Below, piece by piece: positions 1-64,000 of a DNA stretch of 64,000 nt; positions within the stretch are counted from its first letter, which is position 1, and each line of letters starts with the position of its first letter. The stretch covers positions 1-64,000 of the forward strand of contig JBIPSI010000016.1 of NCBI GenBank assembly GCA_044070495.1, read 5' to 3'. Both the position numbers and the translations under genes were made by a program. The notes beneath the pieces were generated by a model. That model saw only the letters and a list, made by a program, of their open reading frames with translations. It was not told where the DNA came from and did not search any database. The stretch is from Spirulina sp. (GTDB lineage Bacteria; Cyanobacteriota; Cyanobacteriia; Phormidesmidales; Phormidesmidaceae).

Positions 1-80
1 TACTGCACAATCTGGTTATCATGCAGACGACGAGTCCCATTCTTGACAACGGTTTCGCTCTGGCAGTGGGGGCAACGCAT
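1..80 (-). CDS. Transposase N-terminus (Zn ribbon), partial
   Basis: Manual translation MRCPHCQSETVVKNGTRRLHDNQIVQ...; CxxC...KNG start typical of cyanobacterial IS1/IS6 transposases; not in the ORF track. Confidence 0.7.
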   Translation of the reverse strand, partial: MRCPHCQSETVVKNGTRRLHDNQIVQ

Positions 81-137
81 AGGCCAATGACGCTCTACGC
101 CTACATTCTAGCCGTCATCCTTTAACTGACCAGTGCC
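1..137 (-). mobile_element. Left end of an IS6-family-like insertion sequence, truncated by the window edge
   Basis: Minus strand begins GGCACTGGTCAGTTAAAG at 137-120 (IS6/IS26-type IRs start GGCACTG). A TAGAAT -10 follows at 110-105, then an ORF from ATG at 80. Confidence 0.65.
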
Positions 138-274
138 TAGAGACGCGGTTATCGCGCCCATCGCATGGTTTTTGGTCAGGTAACCAGTCCATGCTGTTGA
201 AGGATGGCGTCTATTACAGTAGAGTCCTGTGCATCGTGTGGCCGACCGACTTAGGAGACAAAGCGATTACTAGA

Positions 275-883
275 ATGAAACCGCCAAGTTTATTGCGATG
301 GGAACCCAGGCGACGACCATGGCGGATTGGCTTGCTCATTGGGTGTTTGGGGTGGGGCGGATTGAGCGCTCCTGGCTGGGGCATGGCTCCCAATGGGCCG
401 ATGCCTTTGGTCGATCCGGTGCCAGAGGTGGGTCGCCCTTGGGTGCCCCTGGGAGAGGCGGCGGATCATCTGCCCCAGCAAGGCGATCCGGTCTATGCCA
501 CCCATGTAGTGCTGCGGTTGTCGGAGCGACGGGTTTACCTCTACGACGGCAATCGACTGTGGGTTAGCTATCCGGTGGCCGTAGGGCGACAGGGTTGGAC
601 CACCCCCACCGGACGGTTTGTGGTGCAGCGCAAGCAGGCCGATCCCACCTGGCGGCATCCCTTCACCGGAGCATTGGTTCCCCCTGGCCCCGAAAATCCC
701 CTCGGTCGGCACTGGGTGGGCTTTTGGAGCGATGGCAACAACGTCATTGGCTTCCACGGCACCCCCCAGGAAGACTTGATTGGGCAGGCGGTGTCCCATG
801 GCTGTGTGCGAATGCGCAATGCCGATGTTGCTGAGTTTTTTGACCGCGTGCAGGTGGGCACCCCCGTCATCGTTGAACCCTAG
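275..883 (+). CDS. L,D-transpeptidase (YkuD family)
   Basis: YPVAVG, TPTG, NPLG and GFHGT...SHGCVRM catalytic motif; ATG 275 preferred (AGGAG upstream). Confidence 0.9.
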   Translation: MKPPSLLRWEPRRRPWRIGLLIGCLGWGGLSAPGWGMAPNGPMPLVDPVPEVGRPWVPLGEAADHLPQQGDPVYATHVVLRLSERRVYLYDGNRLWVSYPVAVGRQGWTTPTGRFVVQRKQADPTWRHPFTGALVPPGPENPLGRHWVGFWSDGNNVIGFHGTPQEDLIGQAVSHGCVRMRNADVAEFFDRVQVGTPVIVEP

Positions 884-934
884 GGCGACCTGGACACAAA
901 TTTTCCCTGGGGGATACTCGTGTAAAATCTGGGG

Positions 935-3475
935 ATGACTGAATCACGCCCCGTTTCCCCAACGCCCCAAATCCCCGTCCAGTCCTGGCAGCGACCCCTT
1001 GGCCAAGGCTGGGATCAGCATTACATCGTGCGCTACGCCAGCAATTTAGACGATGGCCCCTGGCATGGGGCACCGCTGGGGGGCTTTGGGGCCGGATGCA
1101 TCGGTCGCTCGCCCAGAGGGGATTTCAACCTCTGGCACATCGACGGCGGCGAGCATGTGTTTCAGACTTTCCCCGGCTGTCAGTTCAGCGTGTTTGAATC
1201 GGGCGGTGGGAAAACCCAAGCCTACGCCCTGAGTACGGAACCGCCTCAAGATGGGACGCTTTCGACCTGGAACTGGTATCCCGCTTCTACGCCAGAACGT
1301 TCCACCGGAACGTACCACGCCCTCTATCCCCGCAGTTGGTACCGCTACGAGAACGTGTTTCGGGCGGAAATTACCTGTGAACAGTTTTCCCCCATCTGGC
1401 CAAACAACTACCAGGAAGCCAGCTACCCCGTGGCGGTGTTTGAATGGACGGCCCACAACCCCACGGATCAGCCTCTCACCCTCTGCGTGATGGTGAGCTG
1501 GCAGAATATGGTGGGCTGGTTTACGAATACGCAAAAATCCCCGGAAGTGCAGCAGCGGGACGATGGCAGCCCCTACTACGACTACGTCCCCGCCCTTGGC
1601 CAAAGCCAGGGCAACTACACCCAACTGATTTCCACCGACGGCCTCAAGGGTTGCCTGATGAGCGGCGACTGGCAGCGCCTGCGAGAACCCCAGGAAGGGG
1701 ACGGTCAATGGTGCATCGCTACGCTGGATAACCCGGATATCGAAATTTCCTACGACCTGCGCTGGAACCCCGCCGGAGATGGGGCCGACCTATGGAGCGC
1801 CTGGGCCAAGCTGGGACGGCTGATGAATCTGCTAGATACCACCGCCGCCGGAGAGGGTGAACAAGTCGGTTGCGCCCTGGCCCTGCGCTTTACCCTGCAA
1901 CCGGGAGAAACGCGGCAGTTTCCCATCGTCCTGGCCTGGGATTTGCCTGTGACGGAATTTGCCGAGGGCGTCAGCGCCTACCGTCGCTATACGGACTTTT
2001 TTGGGCGGGATGGACGCAATGCTAGGGCGATTGCTCATCAAGCGTTGACAAACCACAAGGACTGGCAGCAAAGCATCACCACCTGGCAGCAGCCGATTTT
2101 AGACAGGCCCGACCTGCCCGACTGGTTCAAGATGGCCCTGTTTAACGAACTCTACGACCTGACCAGCGGCGGCACCCTCTGGAGTGCGTCCACCGAGGCC
2201 GACCCCGTGGGCCAGTTTGCGGTACTGGAATGCATCGACTATCGCTGGTACGAAAGCCTGGATGTGCGGCTCTATGGCGGCTTTGCAACCCTGCTGTTGT
2301 GGCCAGAGCTAGAAAAATCCATCCTCCGCGCCTTTGCCCAGGCCATCCCCACCCAGGACGACCGACGGCGAATCATCGGCTATTACCTGACGATAGGCGT
2401 AGAAAGCCCCCTGGCCCAGCGCAAAACCAAGGGAGCTACCCCCCACGACCTCGGTGCCCCCAACGAACAGCCCTGGGTGCAAACCAACTACACCAGCTAC
2501 CAAGACTGCAACCTCTGGAAAGACCTGGGCAGCGACTTTGTGATCCAGGTCTATCGCGCCTTTGTGTTCACTGGGGCCAACGACCTGGAATTCCTGCAAA
2601 CCTGCTGGCCTGCGGTGGTGGAAACCCTGCAATATCTCAAGCATTTCGACCGCGACGGTGACGGCATCCCCGAAAACGAGGGTGCCCCCGACCAAACCTT
2701 TGACGACTGGCGGCTCAAGGGTCTCAGTGCCTACTGCGGTGGGCTGTGGCTGGCGGCGCTAGAGGCGGCGTTGGCCATGGGCAAGATCCTGTCCGAAAAC
2801 AACCTCGCCCCCGGCACCACCCCGATTTTGCTGACCCAATACCAGCGCTGGCTAGAGGGCGGCTTCCGGGCCTATCACCCCAAACTGTGGAATGGCCGCT
2901 ATTACCGCCTGGATACGGGCAGCGGCTCTGATGTGGTGATGGCCGACCAACTCTGTGGCCAGTTTATGACGCGGCTGCTGAACCTGCCGGATTTGGTGGA
3001 GGAAGCCTGCATTCAGTCCTCCCTAGAGGTCATCTATGAGGCTTGCTTTGTTAACTTTAACCAGGTGGCCCAAACCCAGGAGCGCCCCCAGGCACAAAAG
3101 TTTGAAGGTGCTCAGGTGGGGAACTTTAGCGCTGCCACCTTAAAGCAACCCATCGGAGCCGCTAATGGCGTTTTGCCCGACGGCACCCCCGAAGACCCCG
3201 ACAGCACCCATCAACAGGAAGTGTGGACAGGGATTAACTTTGGCCTCGCCGCCTTCTATGCCCAGATGGGCCACACCGACAAGGCCATGGCCATGACTGA
3301 AGCCGTCGTCCGCCAACTCTACGACTACGGCCTGCAATTCCGCACCCCGGAGGCGATCACTGCCCTGGGTACCTATCGCGCCTGCCACTACATGCGGCCC
3401 CTGGCCATTTGGGGGCTGTATGCGATGCTGCCGACCATTGAATCTCAGTCAAATGCCAATGATTTGACGAGGTAG
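935..3475 (+). CDS. GH116 family glycoside hydrolase (GBA2-like beta-glucosidase)
   Basis: GAPLGGFGAGCIGRS, YESLDV, PDQTFDDW, EVWTG and YMRPLAIW motifs; 846 aa. Confidence 0.9.
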   Translation: MTESRPVSPTPQIPVQSWQRPLGQGWDQHYIVRYASNLDDGPWHGAPLGGFGAGCIGRSPRGDFNLWHIDGGEHVFQTFPGCQFSVFESGGGKTQAYALSTEPPQDGTLSTWNWYPASTPERSTGTYHALYPRSWYRYENVFRAEITCEQFSPIWPNNYQEASYPVAVFEWTAHNPTDQPLTLCVMVSWQNMVGWFTNTQKSPEVQQRDDGSPYYDYVPALGQSQGNYTQLISTDGLKGCLMSGDWQRLREPQEGDGQWCIATLDNPDIEISYDLRWNPAGDGADLWSAWAKLGRLMNLLDTTAAGEGEQVGCALALRFTLQPGETRQFPIVLAWDLPVTEFAEGVSAYRRYTDFFGRDGRNARAIAHQALTNHKDWQQSITTWQQPILDRPDLPDWFKMALFNELYDLTSGGTLWSASTEADPVGQFAVLECIDYRWYESLDVRLYGGFATLLLWPELEKSILRAFAQAIPTQDDRRRIIGYYLTIGVESPLAQRKTKGATPHDLGAPNEQPWVQTNYTSYQDCNLWKDLGSDFVIQVYRAFVFTGANDLEFLQTCWPAVVETLQYLKHFDRDGDGIPENEGAPDQTFDDWRLKGLSAYCGGLWLAALEAALAMGKILSENNLAPGTTPILLTQYQRWLEGGFRAYHPKLWNGRYYRLDTGSGSDVVMADQLCGQFMTRLLNLPDLVEEACIQSSLEVIYEACFVNFNQVAQTQERPQAQKFEGAQVGNFSAATLKQPIGAANGVLPDGTPEDPDSTHQQEVWTGINFGLAAFYAQMGHTDKAMAMTEAVVRQLYDYGLQFRTPEAITALGTYRACHYMRPLAIWGLYAMLPTIESQSNANDLTR

Positions 3476-3566
3476 CCTGCTTGCGGTGGAAACGGCCAAC
3501 TTAGGCCACGCAGGGAAAACTATGTCCATGGGCGGAGGTGCAGAAGATAACGATGGGAAGTAGCCA

Positions 3567-4283
3567 ATGGGGATGTTGAGGGCGGTAGATCGAGATCTGT
3601 GGGTGGCGGAGCAGCCGCTGCGCTATTTTGGCCTCAGCATTGGCACCCGGATGACGGTAGTGCGATTGGCGGGCGGTGACCTGGTGGTGATTTCGCCGAT
3701 TCAGCCCACTGATGGATTAGTTGAAGAGATCGCCGTGATCGGCCCAGTCCGGCACATTGTGGCCCCTAACCTGTACCACTATCGGTATGCGGCGGCCTTT
3801 AAGGCTATCTACCCCGATGCCGTCCTGTGGGCATCGGCGGGGCTAAGGGTTAAGCGGCCAGAATTGCCCATCGACCGCCCCATCGAACCGGATGGCCAAA
3901 GTCCTTGGGACGAGCTGGATTGTCTCTTCTTCCGTGGTCTGCAAACCCTCGCCCCCAACGGCCCCGATCCGCTAGAGGAATGGGTATTCTGCCATACCGC
4001 CAGTCGAACGCTGATCTTGACGGACATTGCCTTTAGGTTTGACGCCAGCTTTCCCTGGCTAACCCGGCTGGTGACCAGACTGGGTGGCAGTTACGACAGC
4101 CTCAGTCCATCGTTGCTGGAGCGGGTGGCCACGAAGGATGATGACCAGGTGAGAGCCTCGGTAGAGCAGGTGTTGCGCTGGGAGTTTGATCGGGTGATTG
4201 TCGCCCACGGCACCATCGTCGAGGGCGGCGGCAAAGCGCAGTTGAAGCAGGGGTATGAGGCCTTTTTGGCAGGCTCACGTTAG
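3567..4283 (+). CDS. DUF4336 family protein
   Basis: GTRMTVVRL, HIVAPNLYHY, RTLILTD, RVIVAHG. Confidence 0.85.
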   Translation: MGMLRAVDRDLWVAEQPLRYFGLSIGTRMTVVRLAGGDLVVISPIQPTDGLVEEIAVIGPVRHIVAPNLYHYRYAAAFKAIYPDAVLWASAGLRVKRPELPIDRPIEPDGQSPWDELDCLFFRGLQTLAPNGPDPLEEWVFCHTASRTLILTDIAFRFDASFPWLTRLVTRLGGSYDSLSPSLLERVATKDDDQVRASVEQVLRWEFDRVIVAHGTIVEGGGKAQLKQGYEAFLAGSR

Positions 4284-4401
4284 GCAAACTCACGTCAAAG
4301 GCAAGTCACCGATAGCCTTGAGGATTGGATTCGGGGTTGTTCTAGCTTTCCTCGGCAACGGCAAGAGGTCGGGGGTACAGCTTGCTTCCCCAGGGGGGCG
4401 G

Positions 4402-4566
4402 CTACTGCTTATACACATCTTGTCTTTGTGCCGTAAGTCCTTGGAGATCCCCCTAAATCCCCCTTATGAAGGGGGACTTTGAATCCATTTTCCCCCTTCA
4501 TAAGGGGGGCTAGGAGGGATCAACCCTAGGAACTCAGTGAAATAGAGATTTATGTATAGGCGGTAG
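4402..4566. mobile_element. MITE-like element enclosing a CCCCCTT...AAGGGGG hairpin pair
   Basis: Imperfect TIR CTACTGCTTATACAC / ATGTATAGGCGGTAG (12/15); flanks GGGGGGCGG and AGGGAGCGG (7/9, possible TSD); internal repeat 4446-4522. Confidence 0.6.
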
Positions 4567-4601
4567 AGGGAGCGGGGAGGCTGTGATCGCTTGACGCTCG
4601 G

Positions 4602-5465
4602 TTACGGATCAATCTCTAGGGAAAGTTGGTAGATGCGTTTTTTGGGTTGTCCGGTGGCTTGGGCCAGTTGACGGCTGGCATCGGCGCGGGAAAGGCCTTG
4701 GTGAATCAGGCGTTCCAACTCGGTGCGGAGGGCGTCGTCGGAGAGGGAAATTTCGCCCTGGGGGGCACCCTGGATAACCACGGTAAATTCGCCCTTGGGG
4801 GCCTCGGCTTGGTAGTGGGCCAGGGCCTCTTCGAGGGTGCCGCGCCAGAATTCTTCAAAGCGTTTGGTGAGTTCGCGACCTAGGGTGATGGGGCGATCTG
4901 GGCCAAGGCGTTCCCGCAAATCCGCCAGGGTTTTGACCAGTTTGTGGGGCGCTTCGTAGAGAATCACCGTGCGCTCCTCCCGCTGGATGGCCTCTAAGCG
5001 GGCGGTGCGCCCCGTACCCTTGAGCGGTAGAAATCCCTCAAACACAAAGCGATCCGTCGGTTGCCCAGAAACGCAAAGGGCCGTCATCGCCGCTGTGGGG
5101 CCAGGGATCGGCACCACGGGAATGTTGGCCGCCACGCAGGCGGCAACCAGTTCGTAGCCCGGATCAGAAATTCCCGGCATCCCCGCATCGGACACCAGCG
5201 CCACGGAATGCTGCCGTTCTTGTAGGTGGTGCAGCACCTCCCCCAGGCGGCTGTGGCGGTTGTGTTCGTGGTAGCTAATTTGGGGCGTGGTGATTTGGAA
5301 ATGTTGCAGTAGTTTTCCCGTATGGCGGGTGTCCTCCGCCGCAATCAAATCCACCGATTGCAGGATCCGCACGGCCCGAAAGGTCATGTCCTCCAGGTTA
5401 CCGAGGGGCGTCCCCACCACGTAGAGATGCCCCGATTTTGGATCCGAGGATGCGGCGTCAGCCAT
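4602..5465 (-). CDS. rsmI: 16S rRNA (cytidine1402-2'-O)-methyltransferase
   Basis: LYVVGTPLGNLEDMTFRA, AEDTRHT, VSDAGMPGISDPG, RELTK. Confidence 0.95.
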   Translation of the reverse strand: MADAASSDPKSGHLYVVGTPLGNLEDMTFRAVRILQSVDLIAAEDTRHTGKLLQHFQITTPQISYHEHNRHSRLGEVLHHLQERQHSVALVSDAGMPGISDPGYELVAACVAANIPVVPIPGPTAAMTALCVSGQPTDRFVFEGFLPLKGTGRTARLEAIQREERTVILYEAPHKLVKTLADLRERLGPDRPITLGRELTKRFEEFWRGTLEEALAHYQAEAPKGEFTVVIQGAPQGEISLSDDALRTELERLIHQGLSRADASRQLAQATGQPKKRIYQLSLEIDP

Positions 5466-5495
5466 AGTGTTTGTCGTCCTAGCGTGTGAACCGAC

Positions 5496-6341
<846 letters not shown>

Positions 6342-6684
6342 CTATTAGGCCCTAGCGCCTCTAGCTTTAATCCCATCGATCCGCCCAATGGTTGTATCAC
6401 GAAAGTGTCCCCTTCCGGCCCCTAGGCTTAGGGCCAACCGATGACCCAGCCCAGCTAGCCCCCCCTTGGCGGTCTCCGCAACAGGCAGGAGTCAAAACAC
6501 TACGGGGTTCTTTTTGATGACTGGCACGGCTGTCATCGTCGAATGCACGGAAGCCTAGGCATAATGTAGAAGCCCCACGGAGACACAGCCTTGGAGGGGC
6601 CACGGGGCAAAAACCCCGGTTGCTTGGAAAAGCTGCTGTAAAATTAACCCGCCGACTCCATCCGCCGATACGGTCTGCCGAACT

Positions 6685-8646
6685 ATGCCAACCCCCATTC
6701 CCGCTGGAACCACCCTACAAAATCGTTACCGCATCCTCCAACCCTTGGGGCAGGGCGGGTTTGGCCGTACTTACCTGGCGGAAGACCTCAATCGCTTTAG
6801 CGAACGCTTTGCCGTCAAGGAGTTTGAACCGCAGTCTGAAAATGACATGACCGAAAAGTCGCTTCAGCTTTTTCAGCGGGAGGCGGCGATTCTCTACGGC
6901 ATTAGCCATCCCCAAATTCCTAAATTTCAGGCCATTTTTGAGGAAGATCAGCGCCTCTTCTTGGTGCAAGACTACATTGATGGTGTCACCTATCGAGATC
7001 TGCTCAACCAGCGCATTGATCAAGGCATGACCTTCTCTGAGGCGGAGGTGCGTCAGTTTTTACAAAACATGCTGCCTGTCCTCGCCCACATCCACAGCAA
7101 GGGCATCATTCACCGGGACATCAGCCCCGACAACATCATGCAGCGCCACACCGACCAGCTCCCTATTCTGATCGACTTTGGGGTGGTGAAGGAGGTCTTT
7201 ACCCGCATTCAAATGACGGGATCCCCGACCCATGCCACCTCCGTCGGCAAGCTGGGCTATGCCCCCAGCGAACAAATTCAGTCTGGGCGAGCCTACCCTA
7301 GCAGCGATCTCTACGCCCTGGCGGTGACGGCGATTGTGATGCTCACCGGTAAAGAACCTCAGGTGCTATTCGACGATGTCAACCTGACCTGGCACTGGCA
7401 GCCCCACGCCCACGTTAGCCCCGGCCTTGCCCAGGTGCTTAACCGTGCCATCAGCTACCGACCGGGAGATCGGTATCAATCCGTCAGCGAAATGGCCCAA
7501 GCCCTGGGGGCCGTTGGCAGCGGCACCGTCGGCGCTCCTCCCCGTCGCCCCGCTCCGCCCCCCTCTCAGGTTAGAACCGTGGCGGTGGGACGGCAGTATC
7601 AGCCTACCCAGGTTGGCCCAGGGCCAGGCTACCCACCGCCCCAGGTGGTTCCCCCGGTGGCGATGCCAGAGTCGGAATCGGTTTGGGAAAATCCCTGGGC
7701 CGTAGCCCTGATTGGGGCGGTACTCGCCTTGCTGGCAGGCCTGGGGGGGTGGCTGGTGGTGAGTTTGATCAATCGTCCCCCCCAAAATGCCGAGAACCCG
7801 GTTCCAGAAATTACCATCGACCCCATCCAACCCACCACGGCTCCCACCACAACCCCCACGCCGCCGCCCGTCAATCGTCCCACGGAATTTAACCAAGCCC
7901 TGCGCCTCGGCCCTGGCCAAAGCCGCACGGTGTCCGGTTCCCTCCGCAGCAGCGAAACCATCAACTACCAGTTTGAAGCCGAGGGTGGCCAGCCCCTCAC
8001 TGCTCGCATTCGTGGGGAAGGGGTTTTGCTAACGGTGCTTGGCCCCGAAGGTGGCCCGGTGGAGAGTGGCGCTGAGCGCGTGCAAAGCTGGCAGGGCAAC
8101 CTCACCACCACGGGTCGCCACAGCATCCAATTGCGGCCTGTGCAGGGGCTAGACCAAAGCAACTACACCCTGGAGGTGGAGTTGGGACAAATCCCAGAAC
8201 CCACGCCAGAGCCGACGCCAGAACCCACGCCGGAACCGACCCCAGAACCCACGCCAGAGCCGACACCAGAACCCACGCCGGAACCGACCCCAGAACCCAC
8301 ACCAAACCCAACCCCAGAGCCAACTCCGACGGAGAATCCTGACGTTACCGAACAGCAGGTGCAAATTCCCCCAGGCCAAACCAATACCCAGGTGGTTGGG
8401 CAGGTCAGCCCAGGGCGAATCCGTCGCTATGTGGTGAATGCCCAGGCTGGACAACGGATGGCCCTGGATCTGCCTAGGGTAAGCGGCCCTGTGACCTTAG
8501 ATGTGCGCTACCCCAACGGCAGCCCCATCCCCGATGCTTCCCGCGTGTTGTCCTGGCGAGGGGCGTTGAACACCTCAGGCAACTATCAAGTGGATGTCAA
8601 ATCTGCCCGTCCGGCGGAATATACCCTGAGTATCTCAGTGAACTAA
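6685..8646 (+). CDS. Membrane Ser/Thr protein kinase with two extracytoplasmic PPC-like domains and a Pro-rich linker
   Basis: LGQGGFGRTY, HRDISPDN, DFG, GYAPSEQ; TM helix WAVALIGAVLALLAGLGGWLVV; (PEPT)n linker. Confidence 0.92.
   Translation: MPTPIPAGTTLQNRYRILQPLGQGGFGRTYLAEDLNRFSERFAVKEFEPQSENDMTEKSLQLFQREAAILYGISHPQIPKFQAIFEEDQRLFLVQDYIDGVTYRDLLNQRIDQGMTFSEAEVRQFLQNMLPVLAHIHSKGIIHRDISPDNIMQRHTDQLPILIDFGVVKEVFTRIQMTGSPTHATSVGKLGYAPSEQIQSGRAYPSSDLYALAVTAIVMLTGKEPQVLFDDVNLTWHWQPHAHVSPGLAQVLNRAISYRPGDRYQSVSEMAQALGAVGSGTVGAPPRRPAPPPSQVRTVAVGRQYQPTQVGPGPGYPPPQVVPPVAMPESESVWENPWAVALIGAVLALLAGLGGWLVVSLINRPPQNAENPVPEITIDPIQPTTAPTTTPTPPPVNRPTEFNQALRLGPGQSRTVSGSLRSSETINYQFEAEGGQPLTARIRGEGVLLTVLGPEGGPVESGAERVQSWQGNLTTTGRHSIQLRPVQGLDQSNYTLEVELGQIPEPTPEPTPEPTPEPTPEPTPEPTPEPTPEPTPEPTPNPTPEPTPTENPDVTEQQVQIPPGQTNTQVVGQVSPGRIRRYVVNAQAGQRMALDLPRVSGPVTLDVRYPNGSPIPDASRVLSWRGALNTSGNYQVDVKSARPAEYTLSISVN
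8194..8325 (+). repeat. Coding 12-bp tandem repeat (PEPT x11, one PNPT)
   Basis: CCAGAACCCACG-type units; 8194-8241 and 8242-8289 form a 48-bp duplication with one mismatch. Confidence 0.95.
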
Positions 8647-9599: not shown

Positions 9600-9729
9600 C
9601 TAGCTGACTGACAAAAGATTCTGCGTCGGACGCAAAAACCGCACCTCTACAGCATTGGCTTCATGTAGGGGTCAGGTCTCCTGACCCTTTGACAGATATG
9701 GGTTCTAGCAAGTTTTGTCAGTCAAGCAG
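9600..9729. mobile_element. MITE family A, copy 1 (130 bp) with internal GTAG-REP-like hairpins
   Basis: TIR core TGACTGACAAAA (9605-9616) / TTTTGTCAGTCA (9713-9724); flanks CGGTGGGGT / CGGTGGGGC; inverted homolog at 52979-53108. Confidence 0.85.
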
Positions 9730-35383: not shown

Positions 35384-38300
35384 CTAGGAAGCCAAGGGGC
35401 CAAGGGGGACGGTGCCTAAATCCTCTCCCTCCAAGGGCGGGGCAGGGGGAATGTCATCGGGAAGTCCCTCTTCTAATTCCCGCAGGATGGGCGGGGCGGG
35501 GGTGGGTTCTTCTCGGAAAATGGCGGACAGCACATCGGCCAGGGTGGGGGCCATGGCGATGCGGTTTTTGTAAACCATGATCACCCGCGTTAGGGCGGGG
35601 AGTTGGTTTTGCTCGGCCACGAGGTAGAGGGGTTCTACGTAGAGGAGGGACTGCTCGATGGGGATAACCAAGAGGTTGCCCTGCTGCGCCCGTGACCCCT
35701 GGGTATCCCACAGAGAAATGCGCTGGGAAATTTCCGGGTCTTGGTTGATGCGGGCTTCGATTTGCTCTGGGCCAAAAACGAGTTCCTGTTTGGGAAAGCG
35801 ATAGAGCAGCCGTCGCCCGTAGCGATTGCCATCCGACCGGGCCGCCAACCAGGCGATTAGGTTATTGCGCTGGGCCGGGGTGAATAGCCGCAGCAGAATA
35901 AATTCCTCGCCTTCCTCCTGGGGGAGTTTCATGATCAGGTAGTAGGGTTCCACCCGCTGGGTTTCGCTGGCGTAGATTTCCGTGGGGGCGCGCCACTGGT
36001 CTTCCCGGTTGTAGAACACCTGGGGGTCGGTCATGTGGTAGGTCATCAGGGAATCGGCCTGCACCGAGAACAAATCCTGGGGGTAGCGAATGTGGATGCG
36101 GAGGGCATCGGGCATGGCCTCCAGAGGCTCGAACATGCCGGGCAGGATGCCGCTCCAGGCTTGGATGATGGGGTCGTTGGGTTCCGACACAAAGAAGCCG
36201 ACGGAGCCATTGAAGGCATCCACCACCACCTTGACCGAGTTGCGAATGTAGTTGAAGTTGTTTTCGCCCGGATCGGAGTAGGGGTAGCGGCTGCTGACGG
36301 TGTAGGCGTCGATCACCCAGTAGAGGTAGTTTTCGCCGGTTTGGGTGTTGAAGTTGGCCTGGATGAAGCTGGGATCGCGGTCGGCAAACCGCTGGAAATC
36401 GATCTGGTCGGGCGGGGTGCTGCCTTGGGCATCTCCGGTGCCCCACTGGCGGGATCGGTTGCCGATGTCCACCGTTACCAGGTAGGGGTCGGTATCAAAC
36501 CGCAGAAAGGGGGCGATGGATCGTACTCGCTCGGCAATGTTGCGGCGAAACAGCAGGCGGGTATCGGTGGTGAAATCCTCGGTAAACAGCATCCGCCAGT
36601 CCTTCAGGTAGCGGGCAAACAGTAGCCGTCGCCAGAGGCCATCCAGGGGAATGCCGCCCCGACCGAGGTAGGTGGTGTAGATGTTTTCGTTGCCGCTGGG
36701 GTAGTCCAGTTCCAACACCTGGGTGTTGGCCATGATGTAGGTGTCGGTGAGTTCGCCAAAATATAGGCGCGGATCGCCGATGGGAATACTCTGGCGCACT
36801 TCCTCGCTGCTGGGGATGTTGTCGATGCCGCGCACAAAGTAGGTGGGCAGGCCATCGGGGCCAGCGGTGTTGACGGGGCTGAGGGTGAAGCCAAAGCCGT
36901 GGGTGTAGACCAGGTGCTCGTTCACCCAGGTTTTGGCGATGTCGGGCACCCGTTCGTAGTTGAGTTCCCGCGCCGAGATCATCACCTGCCGCCGTTCCGA
37001 GCGTCGCTCTTGGTTGAGGATGTTGTAGCGGTCGAAGTCGGCATCTTTAAATTCGTAGTAGAGGCGGATTTGCTGAAGCTGGCGGTTACTTTCCAGCAGC
37101 GGGCGCGGATCCCACAGGCGAATGTTTTCGAGGGTAAGGTCGTTGCGTTCTAGATCCTCCACCGTCAGGTCGCCACTGGGGTCAAAGGGTTCCGAATCGA
37201 TGGCCTCTAGGTCAAAGGCAGCCCGCGTTAGGGCAATGGAGTTGGTAATGTAGGGCCGCTCCCGCTGAAGCTCGTTGGGCTGCACCACCAGCCGCTGCAC
37301 CACCATGGGGGCCAGCACCAAGCCCAGCAGAGCCAGCACCAGGTAAAGGCAAATCCCATTCACCAACAAACTGGTGCAGCCCAGGTTTATCCACCCGCGC
37401 CAGAGCCCCTGCCCCTTGGCCTGTCGTCTTGCCCCCTTGGTCATGGGGTTGAAATAGCTCGGTCGCCACAGCAGCCCCCGCCACAGAAACCCTAGCCCTA
37501 GCCCTAGGGTTAACAGCATTAGGCCCACGTTGGCGGGCAGCAGCACGTGGATGTGGGTATAGCCCGCCCCATAGACGACGCCCTCCTGGGAATAGAGGAT
37601 GTCGTAGCGACCCAGCCAATGGCTAAAGCTGGTCACGAGAAACAACAACCCTGCCAGGGTATACAAATGCTGCTGCTGGGAGAGGGAAAAGCCATAGAAC
37701 CGCCCCCGGCTGAGGGTGCCCCCCCGCATTAGGTAAACCAAGCAGACGACGACAAAGGTAAAAAATAGAACGCCAATCAGCCAAAATTCCAGCAAATTCA
37801 GAATCGGCAGTTGGAAGATATAGAAGCCGATGTCGCGCTTAAAAATAGGCTCCGTTTCGTTATAAGACCCAGGACTGAGGGCCAGCAGCACCGTCGGCCA
37901 CTGTTTCGCCAAAATGAGACCAAAGCCTAGGCTCATCAACCCCGCCGCCAGCCGCCCCAACTGCCGAGGATAGACCACAAAGGCCACCGTACTCATGCCC
38001 AAGGCTGCAATCAGCCAGGGCTGGGCCAGCAAAATTTGCCCCGCCACCCGAAACAATTGCAGCTTCGGCCACAGGGGCAGGGGCGTGGTGGATTCATACA
38101 GGGTGGTGGTTTCGCGCCAAAAATCCGCCGCAATTTGCCCCTGATAGACCAACTGCACCCCCACCAAAAAGCTGAGCACCCCCGCCAGCAGCAGCACCCC
38201 GGTTAACCCCAACCCCTGGGTTTTCGAGGCCCGTTCCGAGGGCGGCGGCAGCGGCGTGGTACGGTCGGCTAGGGCTAGGTTGCCCCAGGTAAACAACAGC

Positions 38301-38506
38301 GTCAGACCAATGGGAATCAACCCCAGCAGCAGTTGAGACCGCAGCCGCAGCCAAAAGACATCGAGGTAGTTCACCTCCACAAACCACAGACGCTCCGCCA
38401 GCAGGTGAATCACCGCATCGGCAGCGAGTACCCCCGCCAAGGCCAACGCACACCATAGCCAATGGGCCAACAGCCAGTGTTTTGCGTCCTTAATCATAGG
38501 ATTCAA
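35384..38506 (-). CDS. UPF0182 family membrane protein
   Basis: NIRLWD, YTHGFG, NYIRNSVKVVVDA, GNLLVIP..LLYVEPLY; start uncertain (38506 or 38497). Confidence 0.92.
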   Translation of the reverse strand: MNPMIKDAKHWLLAHWLWCALALAGVLAADAVIHLLAERLWFVEVNYLDVFWLRLRSQLLLGLIPIGLTLLFTWGNLALADRTTPLPPPSERASKTQGLGLTGVLLLAGVLSFLVGVQLVYQGQIAADFWRETTTLYESTTPLPLWPKLQLFRVAGQILLAQPWLIAALGMSTVAFVVYPRQLGRLAAGLMSLGFGLILAKQWPTVLLALSPGSYNETEPIFKRDIGFYIFQLPILNLLEFWLIGVLFFTFVVVCLVYLMRGGTLSRGRFYGFSLSQQQHLYTLAGLLFLVTSFSHWLGRYDILYSQEGVVYGAGYTHIHVLLPANVGLMLLTLGLGLGFLWRGLLWRPSYFNPMTKGARRQAKGQGLWRGWINLGCTSLLVNGICLYLVLALLGLVLAPMVVQRLVVQPNELQRERPYITNSIALTRAAFDLEAIDSEPFDPSGDLTVEDLERNDLTLENIRLWDPRPLLESNRQLQQIRLYYEFKDADFDRYNILNQERRSERRQVMISARELNYERVPDIAKTWVNEHLVYTHGFGFTLSPVNTAGPDGLPTYFVRGIDNIPSSEEVRQSIPIGDPRLYFGELTDTYIMANTQVLELDYPSGNENIYTTYLGRGGIPLDGLWRRLLFARYLKDWRMLFTEDFTTDTRLLFRRNIAERVRSIAPFLRFDTDPYLVTVDIGNRSRQWGTGDAQGSTPPDQIDFQRFADRDPSFIQANFNTQTGENYLYWVIDAYTVSSRYPYSDPGENNFNYIRNSVKVVVDAFNGSVGFFVSEPNDPIIQAWSGILPGMFEPLEAMPDALRIHIRYPQDLFSVQADSLMTYHMTDPQVFYNREDQWRAPTEIYASETQRVEPYYLIMKLPQEEGEEFILLRLFTPAQRNNLIAWLAARSDGNRYGRRLLYRFPKQELVFGPEQIEARINQDPEISQRISLWDTQGSRAQQGNLLVIPIEQSLLYVEPLYLVAEQNQLPALTRVIMVYKNRIAMAPTLADVLSAIFREEPTPAPPILRELEEGLPDDIPPAPPLEGEDLGTVPLGPLAS

Positions 38507-52956: not shown

Positions 52957-53150
52957 CAACAACCGACAACCAATAACCCTGGTTGACTGACAAAACTTGC
53001 GAGAACCCAAATCCGCCAAAGGGTCAGGAGACCTGACCCCTACATTATCCAAATCCTGTAGGGGCGCGGTTTCCGCGTCCGGCGCAGGATCTTTTGTCAG
53101 TCAACCAACCAACAACCAATAACCAATAACCAACAACCAATAACCAACAA
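52957..53150 (+). repeat. CCAA(T/C)AA heptamer array interrupted by a MITE
   Basis: Heptamer units on both sides of 52979-53108. Confidence 0.8.
52979..53108. mobile_element. MITE family A, copy 2 (inverted relative to copy 1)
   Basis: 16-bp perfect TIR TGGTTGACTGACAAAA / TTTTGTCAGTCAACCA; flanks CCAATAACC / CCAACAACC. Confidence 0.85.
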
Positions 53151-54498: not shown

Positions 54499-54564
54499 CC
54501 CTAGAATTCCTCGTCTCAGCAGATCGTAAACATGCTCTTTTGCCGAGGACTGGGGATCTCTTGG

Positions 54565-59568: not shown

Positions 59569-59612
59569 GGTCACCCGCCCCCGGATTATTTTCCTCCCCG
59601 CCCCAACGGAAC

Positions 59613-59714: not shown

Positions 59715-59778
59715 CAGGGCGAAGGCATGATTCCCGATCACCTAGGCTGGACGGCCAGGGGCTAACGATAGCAGGGGG

Positions 59779-59955
59779 CTAGATCCCATCGGAGACTTCT
59801 ACCCGCTTGGCAAAGAGTTCGCCATCAAAGGGCTGAACGCCAATGGCGGGATAGTTATCGTCGCTAGGGCCAAAAATGCGGGCAATGGGATCGACAAAGT
59901 ATTGGGTCAGCCCGTCTAAAAAGTAGCCAAAAACCGAAAGTTTAGAGCGTTTCAT
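59779..59955 (-). CDS. 58-aa NirP1-like small protein (below the ORF-track cutoff)
   Basis: MKRSKLSVFGYFLDGLTQYFVDPIARIFGPSDDNYPAIGVQPFDGELFAKRVEVSDGI; GAGG 8 nt before ATG. Confidence 0.8.
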   Translation of the reverse strand: MKRSKLSVFGYFLDGLTQYFVDPIARIFGPSDDNYPAIGVQPFDGELFAKRVEVSDGI

Positions 59956-59980
59956 AGGTGCTACCTCATCGGGTGTGAAG

Positions 59981-59994
59981 GTCTGGATATTGAC
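59981..59994. promoter_or_regulatory. Possible NtcA-like site (GT-N10-AC) near the predicted TSS of the small ORF
   Basis: GTCTGGATATTGAC, just downstream of minus-strand -10 TAGCTT (60006-60001). Confidence 0.35.
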
Positions 59995-60050
59995 ATCCCT
60001 AAGCTAGTCAGAGTAGGGATAAGGAACCCATTTATCCAATAATGCAGCGC

Positions 60051-60069
60051 TATCAAGACGCGATTGATA
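60051..60069. promoter_or_regulatory. NtcB/LysR-type site ATC-N11-GAT
   Basis: TATCAAGACGCGATTGATA palindrome upstream of the small ORF. Confidence 0.6.
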
Positions 60070-60725
60070 GGATTTAAAGGAGAGAAATGAACATCCAAGA
60101 AATCACCCTATCTCTAAAACGGGATTCGCTGCATGGATTGATATGAGGAAATTACGGTTGTTGAATTAGCGATATTTGATGGGGCTAAATAAACCTAAAC
60201 TTCCTACACTCTCTAACACTTTTATACTAAGAGATCGGCTCTATCCCATTCCATCTGTGGTGACTATTCTTTACAGAGTATGGCCATTAATGATAAACCG
60301 ACTTCACCGGAGGGCGAGGTCAGCGATACGGTCGCTAGGCGCTCAGAGGTCAACCCATCGGACTAGGGCTACAGAGACTGGCTGACACAATGCCGAAGCC
60401 CATTTGCACCGCTGGCCCCACCCACGGGGTTGATGGGGCAACCCATGGGCTACGACAGCCCTGAATTTCTCCGGACGGGGGCGATGTTCCATTGGATTCC
60501 TAGGATTGGGAGACAACCGTGAACGGTTGTAACGGCGAATTGTATAGAGATCCTTCATTTTCTGGCCATTGGGCATGAAATAGGTAGGGCCACGAAATGG
60601 TATGTTGGATCGGGTTCAAACTGGTGGTAAACCAGTCAGCATTCGGGGGTAGGTCTACCAGACGAGGTTGACTCCGCTGGGTCAGTCCTCACAGGTGTTG
60701 ATTTTCCGTAGTTTCTGAGATCGCC

Positions 60726-62345
60726 ATGCTAAGTGCGCTCCTTGCCTTAACGTTTTCACCGGTCTTTGCTCAGGTTCCTCAGGCCGAGATTGCCGCTTCG
60801 GATCCAGCCGAGACGGTGATTCTCTCCCGTGATGGCACCTACGCTGAGGTGATTCGGCGGCAAGAAGTACGGTCTCTTCCCGGTAGCCTGGATGAGGTGC
60901 CGGTGTTTAATAGCAACAGCCCTGAGGTGGTGCAGCAGGAGGGGATTCTGCTATCCACCTTTCCGCCGGAGGGTATGACCACGGCGGCGGCTCACCTCAA
61001 CTATTCCTTTAACGGGCGTTTTGACATTTTTGCCCACCACATCGCCCGTGGCCTCAATCCTGACGACCGACGCACGCTGTTTTTGGGCGTTGTGATCTAC
61101 AACCCTAACGATGAACCCGTTACGGTCACCATCGATCAAGGGGTAAGCTATCTCAGCCAGGAGGCTCCCTTCCTCGAATTGCCCGATATGCGCCTGAGCA
61201 CTAACGGCAACGTATTTGCTGGCCCCGGCAGCCGCACCGCCACCGATATGCTGCGGGGGGCCACCCAACCTCACTGGCCGCGCTCCATCACCATCCCACC
61301 CGGCCATGTTCACCTATTGATGAACACGCCCATTCCGCTGCGGCAGTTGACCGTACCCGTAAACGGCAGTCATCCCCAGGGGGCCATGATCCCCAAACCG
61401 CCGATCCGTCCAGTCACGGTCTCAGCGGCCTCAGAACAGATCAACTTAGATAGCAACGGGGAGGTCTTGCCGCCGCCCCGGCCCGTTGAGCGGCCTATCC
61501 CCAGCAATGGCCGCACCGCCATGATGTATCTGACCAGCAGCGGCCCCGTGCATGTGGCCAGCTTAGCCAAGTATGCCGACCGCACCGCCTCCGGGGACGA
61601 AAAGGTACCCACCCTCAGCGACTGGATTCGGATCCTCAAGCAGGGACGGCTGGCGGGGCCTCGGGATATTCCCCCTTCTGATCCCAACACCTATCGCTTT
61701 GGTCGCTTCTACTATGGCCGAGTAGCGGGCGTAGCGAAGGGATCCTCCTGGCAGGCCACCCTCACCGACAACCCAGAGGCTGAGGTGCTGACGGTGCCGC
61801 CCCCGGGCAATTCCTTCTCCTATGTAGTTAGTTCTGTGGATCGCAATACCTTTGGCACGGGGCAAATTCAAAGTGCCCCCATGGTGGCCCGCTATCCCGA
61901 TACGGCCTTCCGTGCCCACGGCAACTACGGCGTGCGCTACAGCCTCGATCTGCCCCTCTACAACAACACCGGCACCGCCCAAACCGTTAGCATCAAGTTT
62001 CAAACCCCCATGCAAGACGATAACTTAGTGGCTGGGTTGCGGTTCCGTCGTCCTCCCGAAAATCGAATTTTCTTCCGGGGGACGGTACGCCTGCGGTTCA
62101 AAAACCAAATGGGCCTTGAACAAACTCACTACGTCCACCTCGTGCAGCGACGGGGGCAGGAGGGTGAGCCTTTGCTGCGGTTCACGGTGCCCCCAGAAAC
62201 CCGTCGAGACTTGGCGGTGGATCTAATCTACCCCGCCGATGCCACCCCGCCCCAGGTGCTAACGATCTTTAACGGCGCAAACCGTCCGGTTTTCGGGGCT
62301 AGTGATGCCTCTGTGGTGCCAGCCCTCAGTCAAGAACCCCCCTGA
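60726..62345 (+). CDS. DUF3370 family protein
   Basis: PVFNSNSPE...GILLSTFP, YGRVAGV, AHGNYGV, YPADATPPQVLT. Confidence 0.9.
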   Translation: MLSALLALTFSPVFAQVPQAEIAASDPAETVILSRDGTYAEVIRRQEVRSLPGSLDEVPVFNSNSPEVVQQEGILLSTFPPEGMTTAAAHLNYSFNGRFDIFAHHIARGLNPDDRRTLFLGVVIYNPNDEPVTVTIDQGVSYLSQEAPFLELPDMRLSTNGNVFAGPGSRTATDMLRGATQPHWPRSITIPPGHVHLLMNTPIPLRQLTVPVNGSHPQGAMIPKPPIRPVTVSAASEQINLDSNGEVLPPPRPVERPIPSNGRTAMMYLTSSGPVHVASLAKYADRTASGDEKVPTLSDWIRILKQGRLAGPRDIPPSDPNTYRFGRFYYGRVAGVAKGSSWQATLTDNPEAEVLTVPPPGNSFSYVVSSVDRNTFGTGQIQSAPMVARYPDTAFRAHGNYGVRYSLDLPLYNNTGTAQTVSIKFQTPMQDDNLVAGLRFRRPPENRIFFRGTVRLRFKNQMGLEQTHYVHLVQRRGQEGEPLLRFTVPPETRRDLAVDLIYPADATPPQVLTIFNGANRPVFGASDASVVPALSQEPP

Positions 62346-62425
62346 TCGCAATAATTGGCTTCCTCAAATCTAGTAGCGCTATATTGGCTAAAGATTCGAG
62401 GCCCATGGTGGGTGAGGAAATTGTT

Positions 62426-62890
62426 ATGGCTGGGAAAAAGACCAACTGGCTACCGGGCGTCGTTAGCCGAGATCGACTTCAGCGCTCCTATCTGTGGGGT
62501 GGTGGGCTAGCCCTCGTCGTTCTATTCCTAGTGGGCTGCGGAACCAATAGTTCGGCCCCTGGTGACGCCACCAATCATTCCGCTGGTACCGAGGTGGTAG
62601 CCGCTACCCCAGAGGCATCCCTCGCTCAACATCTTGCGGCCACGGGGGGCACCATGTATGGAGCCTACTGGTGCCCCCACTGCGCCGATCAAAAGGCCAT
62701 GTTTGGCGATGCCGTGGATCAACTACCCTACGTAGAATGCGCTGCCGATGGGGAGAATGCCCAACCGGATCTCTGTAGTGCGAAGGGAATTCAGGCCTAT
62801 CCCACCTGGGAAATTAACGGCCAACTCTATCCCGGCGTTAAATCCCTAGAGGATTTAGCGCAGCTCTCGGGCTATCAACCAGCCCCATAG
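62426..62890 (+). CDS. Thioredoxin-like (VKOR-associated type) lipoprotein
   Basis: Lipobox LVGC; MYGAYWCPHC.DQK.MFG, YVEC, YPTWEING; start uncertain. Confidence 0.85.
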   Translation: MAGKKTNWLPGVVSRDRLQRSYLWGGGLALVVLFLVGCGTNSSAPGDATNHSAGTEVVAATPEASLAQHLAATGGTMYGAYWCPHCADQKAMFGDAVDQLPYVECAADGENAQPDLCSAKGIQAYPTWEINGQLYPGVKSLEDLAQLSGYQPAP

Positions 62891-62946
62891 CTCTGACAAT
62901 CGGAGCCTTGGCCGATTCCTAGGCTGTTGTCTCATTCCTTAAGCCC

Positions 62947-63306
62947 TTGCACGACCCCAGTTCCCACGCCCACGCCCATGACACCTTCACGCCCCCAGAA
63001 GGCCAGATTGACGGCCAAAGGGTGGTGCACCCCCACGTCCACGACCCGGAATCTCTGCGGAGCATTGTGAACCGTCTATCCCGGATTGAGGGCCATATTC
63101 GCGGCATCAAAACCATGGTGCAGGAAAGCCGCCCCTGCCCTGATGTGCTGGTTCAAATTGCGGCGGTGCGGGGGGCGCTAGATCGGGTGGCCCGCGTTAT
63201 TTTGGATGAGCACCTAACGGAATGCATCAGCCGCGCCGCCGAAGTCGGCAATATTGACGATGAAATTGCTGAACTCAAAGCAGCTCTGGATCGCTTCTTG
63301 CCGTAA
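62947..63306 (+). CDS. CsoR/RcnR-family metal-sensing repressor (InrS-like)
   Basis: His-rich N-terminus, HPHVH, NRLSRIEGHIRG, CPDVLVQIAAVRGAL, EHLTEC. Confidence 0.88.
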   Translation: MHDPSSHAHAHDTFTPPEGQIDGQRVVHPHVHDPESLRSIVNRLSRIEGHIRGIKTMVQESRPCPDVLVQIAAVRGALDRVARVILDEHLTECISRAAEVGNIDDEIAELKAALDRFLP

Positions 63307-63487
63307 CCCTGACCCTAACCCGCTTGGATGATGCACAGCACCCATTCCTGTACCACTGGGCAGGGTTATAGCATCTTTGGCCTCGGCACCGAACGAGTTG
63401 TAAAGCAGTTCCAAGTCAGCCGCCAGTTCGACGATAGAGTAGTTGGAGCACAAACTCGCTCTCGCCTGGGGATTTAGGCCGATTTTC

Positions 63488-64000
63488 TCACTTTAGATAG
63501 GCCTGTGCCCAACCATATCGGGTCGGGTCTTTTTTAAGAAGGTATTCAACGACTTCTCTTCGTTTTGCCTTTTCCTTCGTCATTTTCACAATTCTTGCAA
63601 TTTCATCATCGGTATCATTAGCACCACGCTCTACAGCCAAATCAAACCACTGATCACCCTCAGTATATTCACCTCGGTCATAGTGAATAGCGCCCATAAG
63701 GGTGTATGGCTGGTGGCTTTCAGGCTGGCAATCCATGGCCTCAGCAGCGCAGTTTTCAGCATCTTTAAGCTGATCTAGGTCTCGGAATGCGGCTCCCCTT
63801 GTCACCCAAAGTGCTGATTTCAAGTCAGATTCTCGAACTTTTTGCCAGTTCACCTTTCGTGTGGAGTCGAGTGCCTTTTCAGATTCGTTTGCCTTGCGCC
63901 AATGGCTACTTGCGCTCGGTAAATTCCAGAGATTTCCTGTCCTCTGATATTCCTCCTCATAAAATATGGCCTCTAGCCTATGGTAGGCCATCGCTATCTT
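63488..64000 (-). CDS. TPR-containing protein, 5'-truncated by the window edge
   Basis: TPR-like helices; frame open to the window end; AT-richer than neighbours. Confidence 0.75.
   Translation of the reverse strand, partial: KIAMAYHRLEAIFYEEEYQRTGNLWNLPSASSHWRKANESEKALDSTRKVNWQKVRESDLKSALWVTRGAAFRDLDQLKDAENCAAEAMDCQPESHQPYTLMGAIHYDRGEYTEGDQWFDLAVERGANDTDDEIARIVKMTKEKAKRREVVEYLLKKDPTRYGWAQAYLK

Follow-up and report, generated by a model that had tools for sequence, protein, structure and literature searches.

Loss of the HIP1 palindrome within a broad avoidance of Type II recognition words in a subclade of Nodosilinea

The highly iterated palindrome HIP1 (GCGATCGC), which HIP1-bearing genomes contain about once per kb and far more often than expected, has remained unexplained in cyanobacterial genomes for some thirty years. 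The palindromes that serve as targets of Type II restriction enzymes are under-represented in prokaryotes, often including words for which the genome holds no cognate system, and such restriction-site (palindrome) avoidance in prokaryotic genomes was reportedly treated by Gelfand and Koonin in 1997 and by Rocha, Danchin and Viari in 2001. Here, we report on a stretch of 64,000 nucleotides of a cyanobacterial chromosome (the window, by which the whole stretch is meant) that contains neither HIP1 nor its core word CGATCG, and on the genome and the clade to which it belongs. CGATCG is one of two dozen palindromes depleted in this genome, and HIP1 was probably lost as a by-product of the avoidance of many restriction sites.

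HIP1-poor, CGATCG-depleted cyanobacteria are already known in print, and palindrome avoidance through restriction is classical. Exceptional HIP1-poor cyanobacteria have been described, and the case of Calothrix was explained by a CGATCG-specific endonuclease that invaded and later decayed, such endonucleases being described as coming and going quickly (Elhai, 2015; PMC4390886). The same paper finds GRCGYC and RCCGGY depleted where cognate methyltransferases occur, and groups the 5-methylcytosine (m5C) methyltransferase XorII with the cyanobacterial DmtC. More recently, HIP1 has been linked to pilus and competence genes, and Leptolyngbya sp. BL0902, a member of the Nodosilineales, has been listed without HIP1 enrichment and counted among seven independent losses of it in the phylum (Rodriguez-Cruz et al., 2026, Genome Biol Evol; PMC13756078). 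A word search of the main text of that paper returned neither 'restriction' nor HIP1 loss in those words.

Depletion of CGATCG and other palindromes

CGATCG is missing from both strands of the window, against 20.9 copies expected from a maximal-order Markov model, 20.6 from the product of the half-site counts (73 x 91 / 322) and a mean of 10.9 (standard deviation 3.19) in 100 dinucleotide-preserving shuffles. No copy of GCGATCGC occurs in the 64 kb. GATC is found 322 times and the half-sites CGATC and GATCG 73 and 91 times, 164 together. An earlier note on this DNA, made from the sequence alone, had read over 100 half-sites, had put the expectation at about 20 and had described CGATCG as apparently avoided altogether; that observation is confirmed. 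CGATCG is joined in the window by ten other words, since eleven palindromic hexamers with an expectation of at least 5 (5-40 each) have no copy, namely CAGCTG, CCGCGG, CGATCG, CGCGCG, CGGCCG, CTCGAG, GACGTC, GCCGGC, GGCGCC, GGGCCC (40 expected) and GTCGAC.

The window is the beginning of contig C16 (C16:1-64000) of its own assembly, here called G000, which comprises 5,313,730 bp in 74 contigs with a guanine plus cytosine (GC) content of 56.7% and a completeness of 97%. Exact counts over these 5.31 Mb give 208 CGATCG against 1786 expected, an observed to expected ratio (O/E) of 0.116, and 104 HIP1, half of all CGATCG, against 81 for a reversed-word control. Ranked by O/E, 24 palindromes of 6 bp are strongly depleted, and CGATCG comes 13th among them. 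The strongest depletion, with observed and expected counts, is that of GGCGCC (8/2002), CGGCCG (8/1858), CCGCGG (7/998) and GTCGAC (11/850). GGGCCC (92/2976), GCCGGC (42/1104), CTGCAG (78/1878), TTCGAA (41/603), CAGCTG, CCCGGG, CGCGCG and CTCGAG are also ranked ahead of CGATCG. The 24 palindromes, out of 64 palindromic hexamers, lie below an O/E of 0.43, the 0.1% quantile of the 4032 non-palindromic hexamers. Among the 2080 canonical hexamers the 27 lowest are these 24 palindromes and three words that complete the degenerate sites CYCGRG, GRGCYC and RCCGGY. The shorter degenerate word GGWCC is depleted as well (526 against 7210 expected, O/E 0.073).

Other GC-rich palindromes are unaffected (CCATGG 0.91, CCTAGG 0.93, GCTAGC 0.90, GGTACC 0.93 and AGCGCT 0.96), so that the depletion is sequence-specific and not compositional; GATC is not avoided either (O/E 0.88). 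A pattern of this kind marks genomes that avoid discrete Type II recognition words, and it is not aimed at HIP1. The view of the earlier note that the HIP1 core itself is being purged stands as far as CGATCG is depleted; with CGATCG only 13th of the 24 words, HIP1 is not specifically targeted. Two degenerate 7-mers are also strongly depleted genome-wide, GCCWGGC with 269 against 1554 expected and GCCSGGC with 143 against 746 expected.

The HIP1 sites have left no large excess of relics in G000. All 12 canonical one-off variants of GCGATCGC have an O/E of 0.64-1.17, and the lack of a marked excess indicates that HIP1 was not erased very recently. Nor does G000 have another iterated palindrome in place of HIP1: the commonest 8-bp palindromes are GCCATGGC with 636 and CCCTAGGG with 629 sites, about five times the base-composition expectation, and GGGATCCC occurs 143 times against 139 expected.

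A HIP1-poor subclade and its imported islands

The genome of the window belongs to a subclade of Nodosilinea that comprises seven of 53 species-level genomes. HIP1 counts over these 53 genomes fall in two classes, with 22-546 copies in seven (G047 22, G005 72, G031 80, G063 91, G000 104, G049 153 and G052 546) and 1704-8568 in the other 46, in agreement with the claim of the earlier note that the lineage had lost HIP1. The clade was delimited with a marker gene of the window, listed here together with the window as a whole:

35384..38506, minus strand: UPF0182-family marker gene (PF03699, 928 bits)
1..64000, no strand (.): ordinary chromosomal stretch with housekeeping genes (Pfam scan of open reading frames)

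The seven HIP1-poor genomes are exactly those with a UPF0182 protein 88-92% identical in amino acids to that of the window, with 52 of the 53 genomes compared. Outside the clade, the HIP1-rich G008 reaches 86% over a partial match, and all full-length matches have at most 81%. Pfam matches in the open reading frames of the window also include glycosidases, peptidases, alanine racemase, lycopene cyclase, DUF4336, DUF3370 and others, and no restriction, nuclease or DNA methylase gene was met among the 24 of 32 open reading frames of at least 250 amino acids that were scanned against Pfam.

The marker gene also preserves the history of individual sites. In a query-anchored codon alignment, GCGATCGC is common among the HIP1-rich congeners at gene positions 269, 1987, 2123 and 2678, where it is present in 6/6, 8/8, 6/8 and 8/8 of the congeners with sequence there. 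The CGATCG core is gone at all four positions in every clade member with sequence there. The replacements vary by member, being GCAATCGC, GCGACCGC and GCAACCGC at one former site and GCCATCGC, GCCATTGC, ACTATCGC and TCCATCGC at another, and some of them alter the amino acid. Judged from this alignment, HIP1 was evidently lost in the clade and was not absent from the start. Synteny of the window with its relatives is poor, only 1-2 of the 12 window genes tried being alignable per genome, and the data on divergence and on the fate of HIP1 sites are thin to that extent.

The broad purge of palindromes is a clade trait as well. A 400-kb sample of G047 has GGCGCC 0/182, GTCGAC 0/75, GCCGGC 1/87 and CGATCG 5/122 (observed/expected), with two HIP1, which extends the core depletion claimed in the earlier note beyond G000. 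At orthologous loci, the sites of the 12 top words number 0 and 5 in the clade loci L013 and L021 (13 kb each) and 44 in the nearest outgroup locus L023 (12 kb). The HIP1-rich congener G018 has a milder form of the same palindrome profile (GGCGCC 0.28, CGGCCG 0.16, GGGCCC 0.08, CAGCTG 0.78, CGATCG 1.25 and 494 HIP1 in a like sample), and the other genomes of the genus likewise show it in weaker form.

Since HIP1 has been linked to pilus and competence functions, two families of this kind were searched, ComEC (PF03772) and the PilQ secretin (PF00263). Both are present in 5/5 genomes, the HIP1-less G000, G047 and G005 and the HIP1-rich G018 and G036, and loss of these genes is ruled out as the cause of HIP1 loss for the two families searched.

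The CGATCG sites that remain in G000 are unevenly spread. Seven islands, 87,872 bp together, contain 109 of the 208 sites at a normal HIP1 density of about 1.2 CGATCG per kb, and about 99 sites are left in the other ~5.2 Mb (O/E 0.06). A normal HIP1 density elsewhere in the chromosome, which the earlier note had named as contrary to its claim, does exist in these islands and is confined to them, the remainder being depleted. The islands have the GC content of the host (56.8%) and no GGCGCC (40 expected), CGGCCG (33 expected) or CCGCGG (20 expected). The largest islands are:

C16:90248-113204: on the contig of the window, 26 kb past the window end, between HIP1-free flanks in one 138-kb contig
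C35: two islands
C40: one island

The DNA of the C16 island is 81% identical to the HIP1-rich G004 over 8.6 kb and 91-94% on shorter pieces, and it matches the other HIP1-rich congeners G039 (83%), G002 (87%) and G045 (87-96%). In the six other clade genomes the only matching sequence is a 130-bp repeat, which identifies the island as an import from a HIP1-rich Nodosilinea. The scarcity of the top depleted words in the island is explained by the homologous donor stretches, which are themselves poor in them. In three overlapping comparisons, CGATCG sites found only in G000 or only in the relative number 4 v 16, 2 v 11 and 3 v 8, with 15 v 20, 10 v 14 and 11 v 9 for control palindromes; the smaller number of CGATCG fits either continued purging or an end to HIP1 upkeep.

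All five islands scanned for gene content carry accessory functions. Genes in the C16 island code for a sigma-factor-like protein, DUF1822, CHASE2-CHAT, DUF928, a two-partner-secretion pair, a patatin and others, and an island on contig C5 holds a SNF2/ResIII helicase and large proteins without known family. We propose that what HIP1 is left marks islands of accessory genes acquired from HIP1-rich cyanobacteria, the source being traced for C16 only. On C35:1-40000 (L100, L101) nearly the entire HIP1-rich stretch is taken up by genes for tandem CHAT-TPR proteins, subtilases, a caspase-like protein, DUF1822 and CHASE2-CHAT, gene types that recur in the C16 island. The island C40:13001-33000 (L102) has phage-tail-sheath and baseplate-J proteins beside a 1398-aa RHS-repeat protein and is, by these domains, a putative contractile-injection or tailocin-like cluster. 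In C12:50001-62000 (L103) a PatG-type subtilase (PatG_C, PatG_D), a C39-peptidase ABC exporter, HlyD and an AraC regulator suggest an imported cyanobactin-like peptide cluster.

The repeat shared between the C16 island and the clade genomes is about 130 bp long, has terminal inverted repeats and resembles a miniature inverted-repeat transposable element. It has 84 blastn matches in G000, several of them 97-100% identical, and each of the six other HIP1-less genomes of the clade has copies of 81-93% identity. The copies in the window and in the HIP1 island are:

9605-9729, minus strand: repeat copy in the window
52977-53108, plus strand: repeat copy in the window
C16:99149-99280: repeat copy in the HIP1 island

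Restriction-modification genes in G000 and its relatives

The screen of G000 for restriction-modification (RM) systems covered the DNA methyltransferase families and their neighbours, not every open reading frame. It returned one C5 methyltransferase, one beta-class N4/N6 enzyme, one Dam-class enzyme and two weak N6 matches in very large proteins. The C5 methyltransferase (PF00145, 387 aa), on contig C51, overlaps an RE_Eco29kI endonuclease (235 bits; PADLOC REase_II 303 bits), of a family whose type enzyme cuts CCGCGG, the third most depleted word of G000. Within the screen a cognate RM system was found for CCGCGG only, and none for CGATCG or the other depleted words. The Eco29kI-type block (C51:4060-6841, L105) has a 292-aa GIY-YIG protein just upstream and a PIN/DUF2281 toxin-antitoxin pair and a DDE transposase on the other side, and is inserted beside bidirectional-hydrogenase genes.

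With the single PF00145 gene paired in this way, G000 has no stand-alone C5 methyltransferase of the DmtC / M.Ssp6803I type in a PF00145 search. A C5 methyltransferase is equally absent from 15 of 25 congeners searched (26 genus genomes including G000), all 15 of them HIP1-rich. Loss of a C5 CGATCG methyltransferase is thereby excluded as a discriminator, and the methyltransferase premise of the earlier note has no discriminating power here. The beta-class methyltransferase of G000 is an orphan among NAD-salvage genes and is conserved in HIP1-rich and HIP1-less genomes; it was considered as the partner of a hidden nuclease and rejected, its NAD-salvage neighbours being those of the HIP1-rich G018, and the names given to it in the sources indicate no specificity. 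The Dam-type gene (PF02086, C13:150838-151569, 215 bits) has counterparts in the four other genomes searched and is a candidate DmtA-type GATC methyltransferase.

Several words strongly avoided in G000 have cognate systems in relatives, and by their distribution such systems come and go. The Eco29kI family occurs in five of the 53 genomes; of the clade members, G000 and G005 retain an intact gene, and G031 has a 60-position remnant with a stop codon. G005 also has a C5 methyltransferase with an enzyme of the BbrUII/HgiDII family, whose target we take to be GTCGAC (11/850 in G000), and in G031 and G049 a C5 methyltransferase stands with RE_SinI (GGWCC), the word GGWCC being strongly avoided in G000. 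G047, with a 4.31-Mb contig, has two C5 and three or four beta-class methyltransferases. At least two full-length PADLOC Type II endonuclease matches, each beside a methyltransferase, are found in G047 (L095, L158). In the same genome an HNH_2 protein (L152:3613-4563, minus strand) matches the NCBIfam model 'phosphorothioated DNA-binding restriction endonuclease' with 116 bits, below the cut-off of 180, about 2 kb from the conserved orphan methyltransferase with a thiC-type gene between them.

A candidate for a CGATCG-cutting enzyme is present in relatives of G000. In G047 and G049 a C5 methyltransferase (426/443 aa) is followed by a 266-aa protein, 96% identical between both genomes, that matches the PADLOC Type II endonuclease model (REase_II) over its full length with 333 bits. 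G005 has it as two fragments on two contigs, and no match was found in G000, G031, G052 or G063. The protein has no Pfam or NCBIfam family and no relative in the PDB, and its source annotation is only 'endonuclease'. Homologs of 56-82% identity occur in non-cyanobacterial hosts, and in the flanks of nine of these (129 kb) CGATCG is the lowest of all 6-bp palindromes, with 2 copies against 30.2 expected; the next lowest word has 0.22. Whole-genome counts of CGATCG in five of the non-cyanobacterial hosts are 6, 195, 80, 286 and 1036, against 88, 408, 158, 396 and 1042 for the reversed word. Homologs of 46-48% identity are present in five HIP1-rich congeners. At 39-44% identity, the methyltransferases of G047 and G049 resemble C5 enzymes of the HIP1-rich G006 and G033 beside which no endonuclease is recognisable.

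Endonucleases 49-50% identical to the 266-aa protein are encoded with a cytosine methyltransferase on small (4.2-5.7 kb) mobilizable plasmids (L252; 64 plasmid records) of Klebsiella, Salmonella, Citrobacter and E. coli, where they are annotated 'endonuclease' beside 'DNA cytosine methyltransferase'. Their occurrence on many enterobacterial plasmids indicates that the module is widely mobile. Another endonuclease of G047, of 306 aa beside a beta-class methyltransferase, was set aside as a PvuI candidate: one of its homologs bears the name 'NheIR protein', and G000 and G047 show no avoidance of GCTAGC.

Competing explanations and relation to known systems

We consider multi-enzyme restriction-site avoidance, with HIP1 lost as collateral, to be the probable explanation. 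Selection against the words recognised by a large number of Type II enzymes would be strong and ongoing in the genomes of the clade, and through it some two dozen 6-bp palindromes together with GGWCC, CYCGRG, GRGCYC and RCCGGY would have been pushed to 0.4-40% of expectation. CGATCG, the word of PvuI and XorII, would be one target among these, and several thousand HIP1 copies would have been erased as a side effect, because the purged CGATCG is the core of HIP1. The responsible RM systems would be patchy and short-lived in the clade, gained, lost and decaying, and with such a turnover any one genome, G000 included, would encode few of them at once. We infer that an enzyme cutting CGATCG was at work in this lineage, and that the words without a resident enzyme are explained by turnover or by systems that the assembly lacks. 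The suggestion of a PvuI-like nuclease in the earlier note is thus plausible for the clade, given the candidate module in G047 and G049 and its fragments in G005, and has no such support in G000, where no trace of the module was found. Overall, the interpretation given in that note is partly supported.

That the avoidance is kept up is indicated by a simulation in which 12.7% of 786,233 four-fold degenerate sites were redrawn by the codon usage of G000. Counts rose from 8 to 736 for GGCGCC, from 8 to 830 for CGGCCG, from 7 to 859 for CCGCGG and from 208 to 536 for CGATCG, and those of control palindromes were unchanged. On this model the near-zero counts must have been maintained along the branch of G000 until very recently, with cognate enzymes seen for one word only.

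A number of points weigh against this explanation. The simulation rests on crude calls of open reading frames and on a codon usage already shaped by avoidance, and the divergence of G000 from its clade relatives, 25-31% of four-fold degenerate sites, on a thin basis of 1-2 genes per genome. One C5 and one orphan beta-class methyltransferase, plus the Dam-type and two weak N6 matches, are too few to protect G000 at GGCGCC, CGGCCG, GCCGGC, GGGCCC, CCCGGG and other words if the enzymes act now, and the shortage persists in G047 despite its 4.31-Mb contig. The candidate endonuclease and its methyltransferase have no tblastn match in G000. The CGATCG specificity of the 266-aa module, proposed from host word avoidance, is unproven and in our judgement an even bet: at 60 distant host loci (46-52% homologs) CGATCG has an O/E of 0.51, second lowest and close to several other words, and cyanobacterial carriers (L169-L171, L178 and the five Nodosilinea with 46-48% homologs) are rich in HIP1 and CGATCG, which means that carrying the module does not by itself purge HIP1. 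A protein of G047 is identical to one attributed to Leptolyngbya sp. BL0902, for which no REBASE Type II homologs were reported in the genome (PMC11298460) and in which a methylase helper plasmid improves conjugation two-fold only (PMC3265524). If G047 is BL0902, the two endonuclease matches of G047 conflict with the former report.

Frequent exchange of the responsible enzymes may leave few of them visible in any one genome, or they may lie on DNA missing from the G000 assembly. The universal 16S ribosomal RNA (rRNA) motif, which we take to contain CCGCGG, served as a test for rRNA operons; none of the seven CCGCGG sites of G000 is in this context, which indicates that rRNA operons are unassembled and that mobile DNA may be missing too. 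It is also conceivable, if unlikely, that endonucleases without cognate methylases act on a site-free genome, imported DNA being their sole target, or that an unrecognised site-specific process removes palindromes. On either view the clade would hold over a dozen GC-rich restriction words near zero along each branch, with far fewer cytosine methyltransferases than self-protection demands.

G000 may itself encode an active PvuI-like (CGATCG) endonuclease that purges the word now, unlinked to a methyltransferase, protected by the orphan beta-class enzyme or located on unassembled DNA, which we regard as doubtful. Outside the islands the low number of CGATCG, about 99 sites in 5.2 Mb, calls for active upkeep, an assembly without the rRNA motif probably lacks repeats and mobile DNA, and the C16 island has fewer CGATCG than its homologs. 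Cyanobacteria outside groups A/B use N4-methylcytosine (m4C) CGATCG methyltransferases (Elhai, 2015; PMC4390886), and G000 keeps a conserved beta-class enzyme. However, this enzyme has the same NAD-salvage neighbourhood as in HIP1-rich congeners and no nuclease alongside, the sole methyltransferase-adjoining endonuclease of G000 is of the Eco29kI type, the clade candidates are without a match there, 109 CGATCG persist in imported islands, and the asymmetry in the C16 island is equally expected if HIP1 upkeep simply ended. Such an end, by loss of a CGATCG methyltransferase with methyl-directed repair, as in the model of Elhai, or of a DNA-uptake function, followed by drift without any nuclease, is a decidedly improbable account. 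Drift would give the varied substitutions at former HIP1 sites, G000 lacks an orphan C5 methyltransferase, and no alternative iterated palindrome has taken the place of HIP1 (the top 8-bp palindromes have ~630 occurrences). Yet passive decay would stop at expectation, whereas CGATCG is at 6-12% of it (0.06 outside islands), and 23 other palindromes are depleted in parallel; the HIP1-rich congeners without C5 methyltransferase and the intact ComEC and PilQ also speak against it.

A mutational loss by deamination of methylated cytosines in CGATCG and the other words without very-short-patch repair is very improbable. CpG is mildly low overall in G000 (rho 0.80) and the products GTGATCGC/GCGATCAC slightly exceed expectation (467 vs 398), but this excess is small, the other transition product GCAATCGC/GCGATTGC is at 1.08, and the few former HIP1 sites examined include G to C, T to C and multi-base changes and not only C to T or G to A. 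Some 20 different cytosine methyltransferases would be needed, where two are seen. The several kinds of substitution, with no marked excess of one-off HIP1 words, likewise give no support to the biased repair that the earlier note had offered as an alternative to a nuclease. The chance that the pattern is an artefact of assembly, binning or contamination is close to negligible: G000 is in 74 contigs at 97% completeness without the rRNA motif, and the HIP1-rich contig C35 could in principle be mis-binned, but the same profile recurs in six other independent assemblies, one with the 4.31-Mb contig, the C16 island lies between HIP1-free flanks within one contig, and the islands share the GC content of the host and its zero counts of GGCGCC, CGGCCG and CCGCGG.

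Loss of HIP1 inside one genus provides closely matched genomes for the study of HIP1 function, with the competence and pilus core genes kept and with HIP1-rich sisters. If multi-enzyme avoidance is the cause, restriction pressure can override whatever maintains HIP1. Residual HIP1 copies are a ready marker of recently imported DNA in the clade. The list of avoided words predicts restriction barriers and the sites to remove from vectors for engineering clade strains. The breadth of the purge against the few modification genes poses a concrete puzzle on how restriction-site avoidance is maintained. Should a methylase-free or unrecognised process be true, HIP1 would still be a collateral loss with ComEC and PilQ intact, and HIP1 function could be studied on a natural knock-out pair, made up of the culturable, conjugable member of the clade and its HIP1-rich congeners.

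No paper was found in a search for literature that joins palindrome avoidance, restriction-modification and cyanobacteria. Four findings seem not to be in print, supplements aside: how far the clade extends, the joint purge of some two dozen words, the imported islands that bear HIP1, and the shortage of modification genes. The BL0902 of Rodriguez-Cruz et al. (PMC13756078) is, like the clade studied here, a member of the Nodosilineales without HIP1 enrichment, and shares the identical protein with G047; that paper, supplements aside and as far as available, gives no CGATCG depletion, multi-palindrome purge, clade extent or imported HIP1-bearing islands. The module of the clade resembles the CGATCG RM systems of the XorII/PvuI type in having a C5 methyltransferase followed by a small endonuclease and in non-cyanobacterial hosts that avoid CGATCG, and differs from them in that its specificity is suggested by host word avoidance only and in its absence from G000. 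Classical palindrome avoidance likewise concerns under-represented Type II targets, often without a cognate system, but it is stronger and broader here, with four words at about 1% of expectation or less, twelve below 10% and one Type II system found. The HIP1-poor cases of Elhai (2015; PMC4390886) are alike in having no HIP1 over-representation and a strongly depressed CGATCG. In contrast to these cases, HIP1 loss is here a trait of a seven-genome clade within an otherwise HIP1-rich genus, no alternative iterated palindrome is present, GATC itself escapes depletion (O/E 0.88), G000 shows no remnant of a CGATCG enzyme, and CGATCG is one of 24 purged palindromes.

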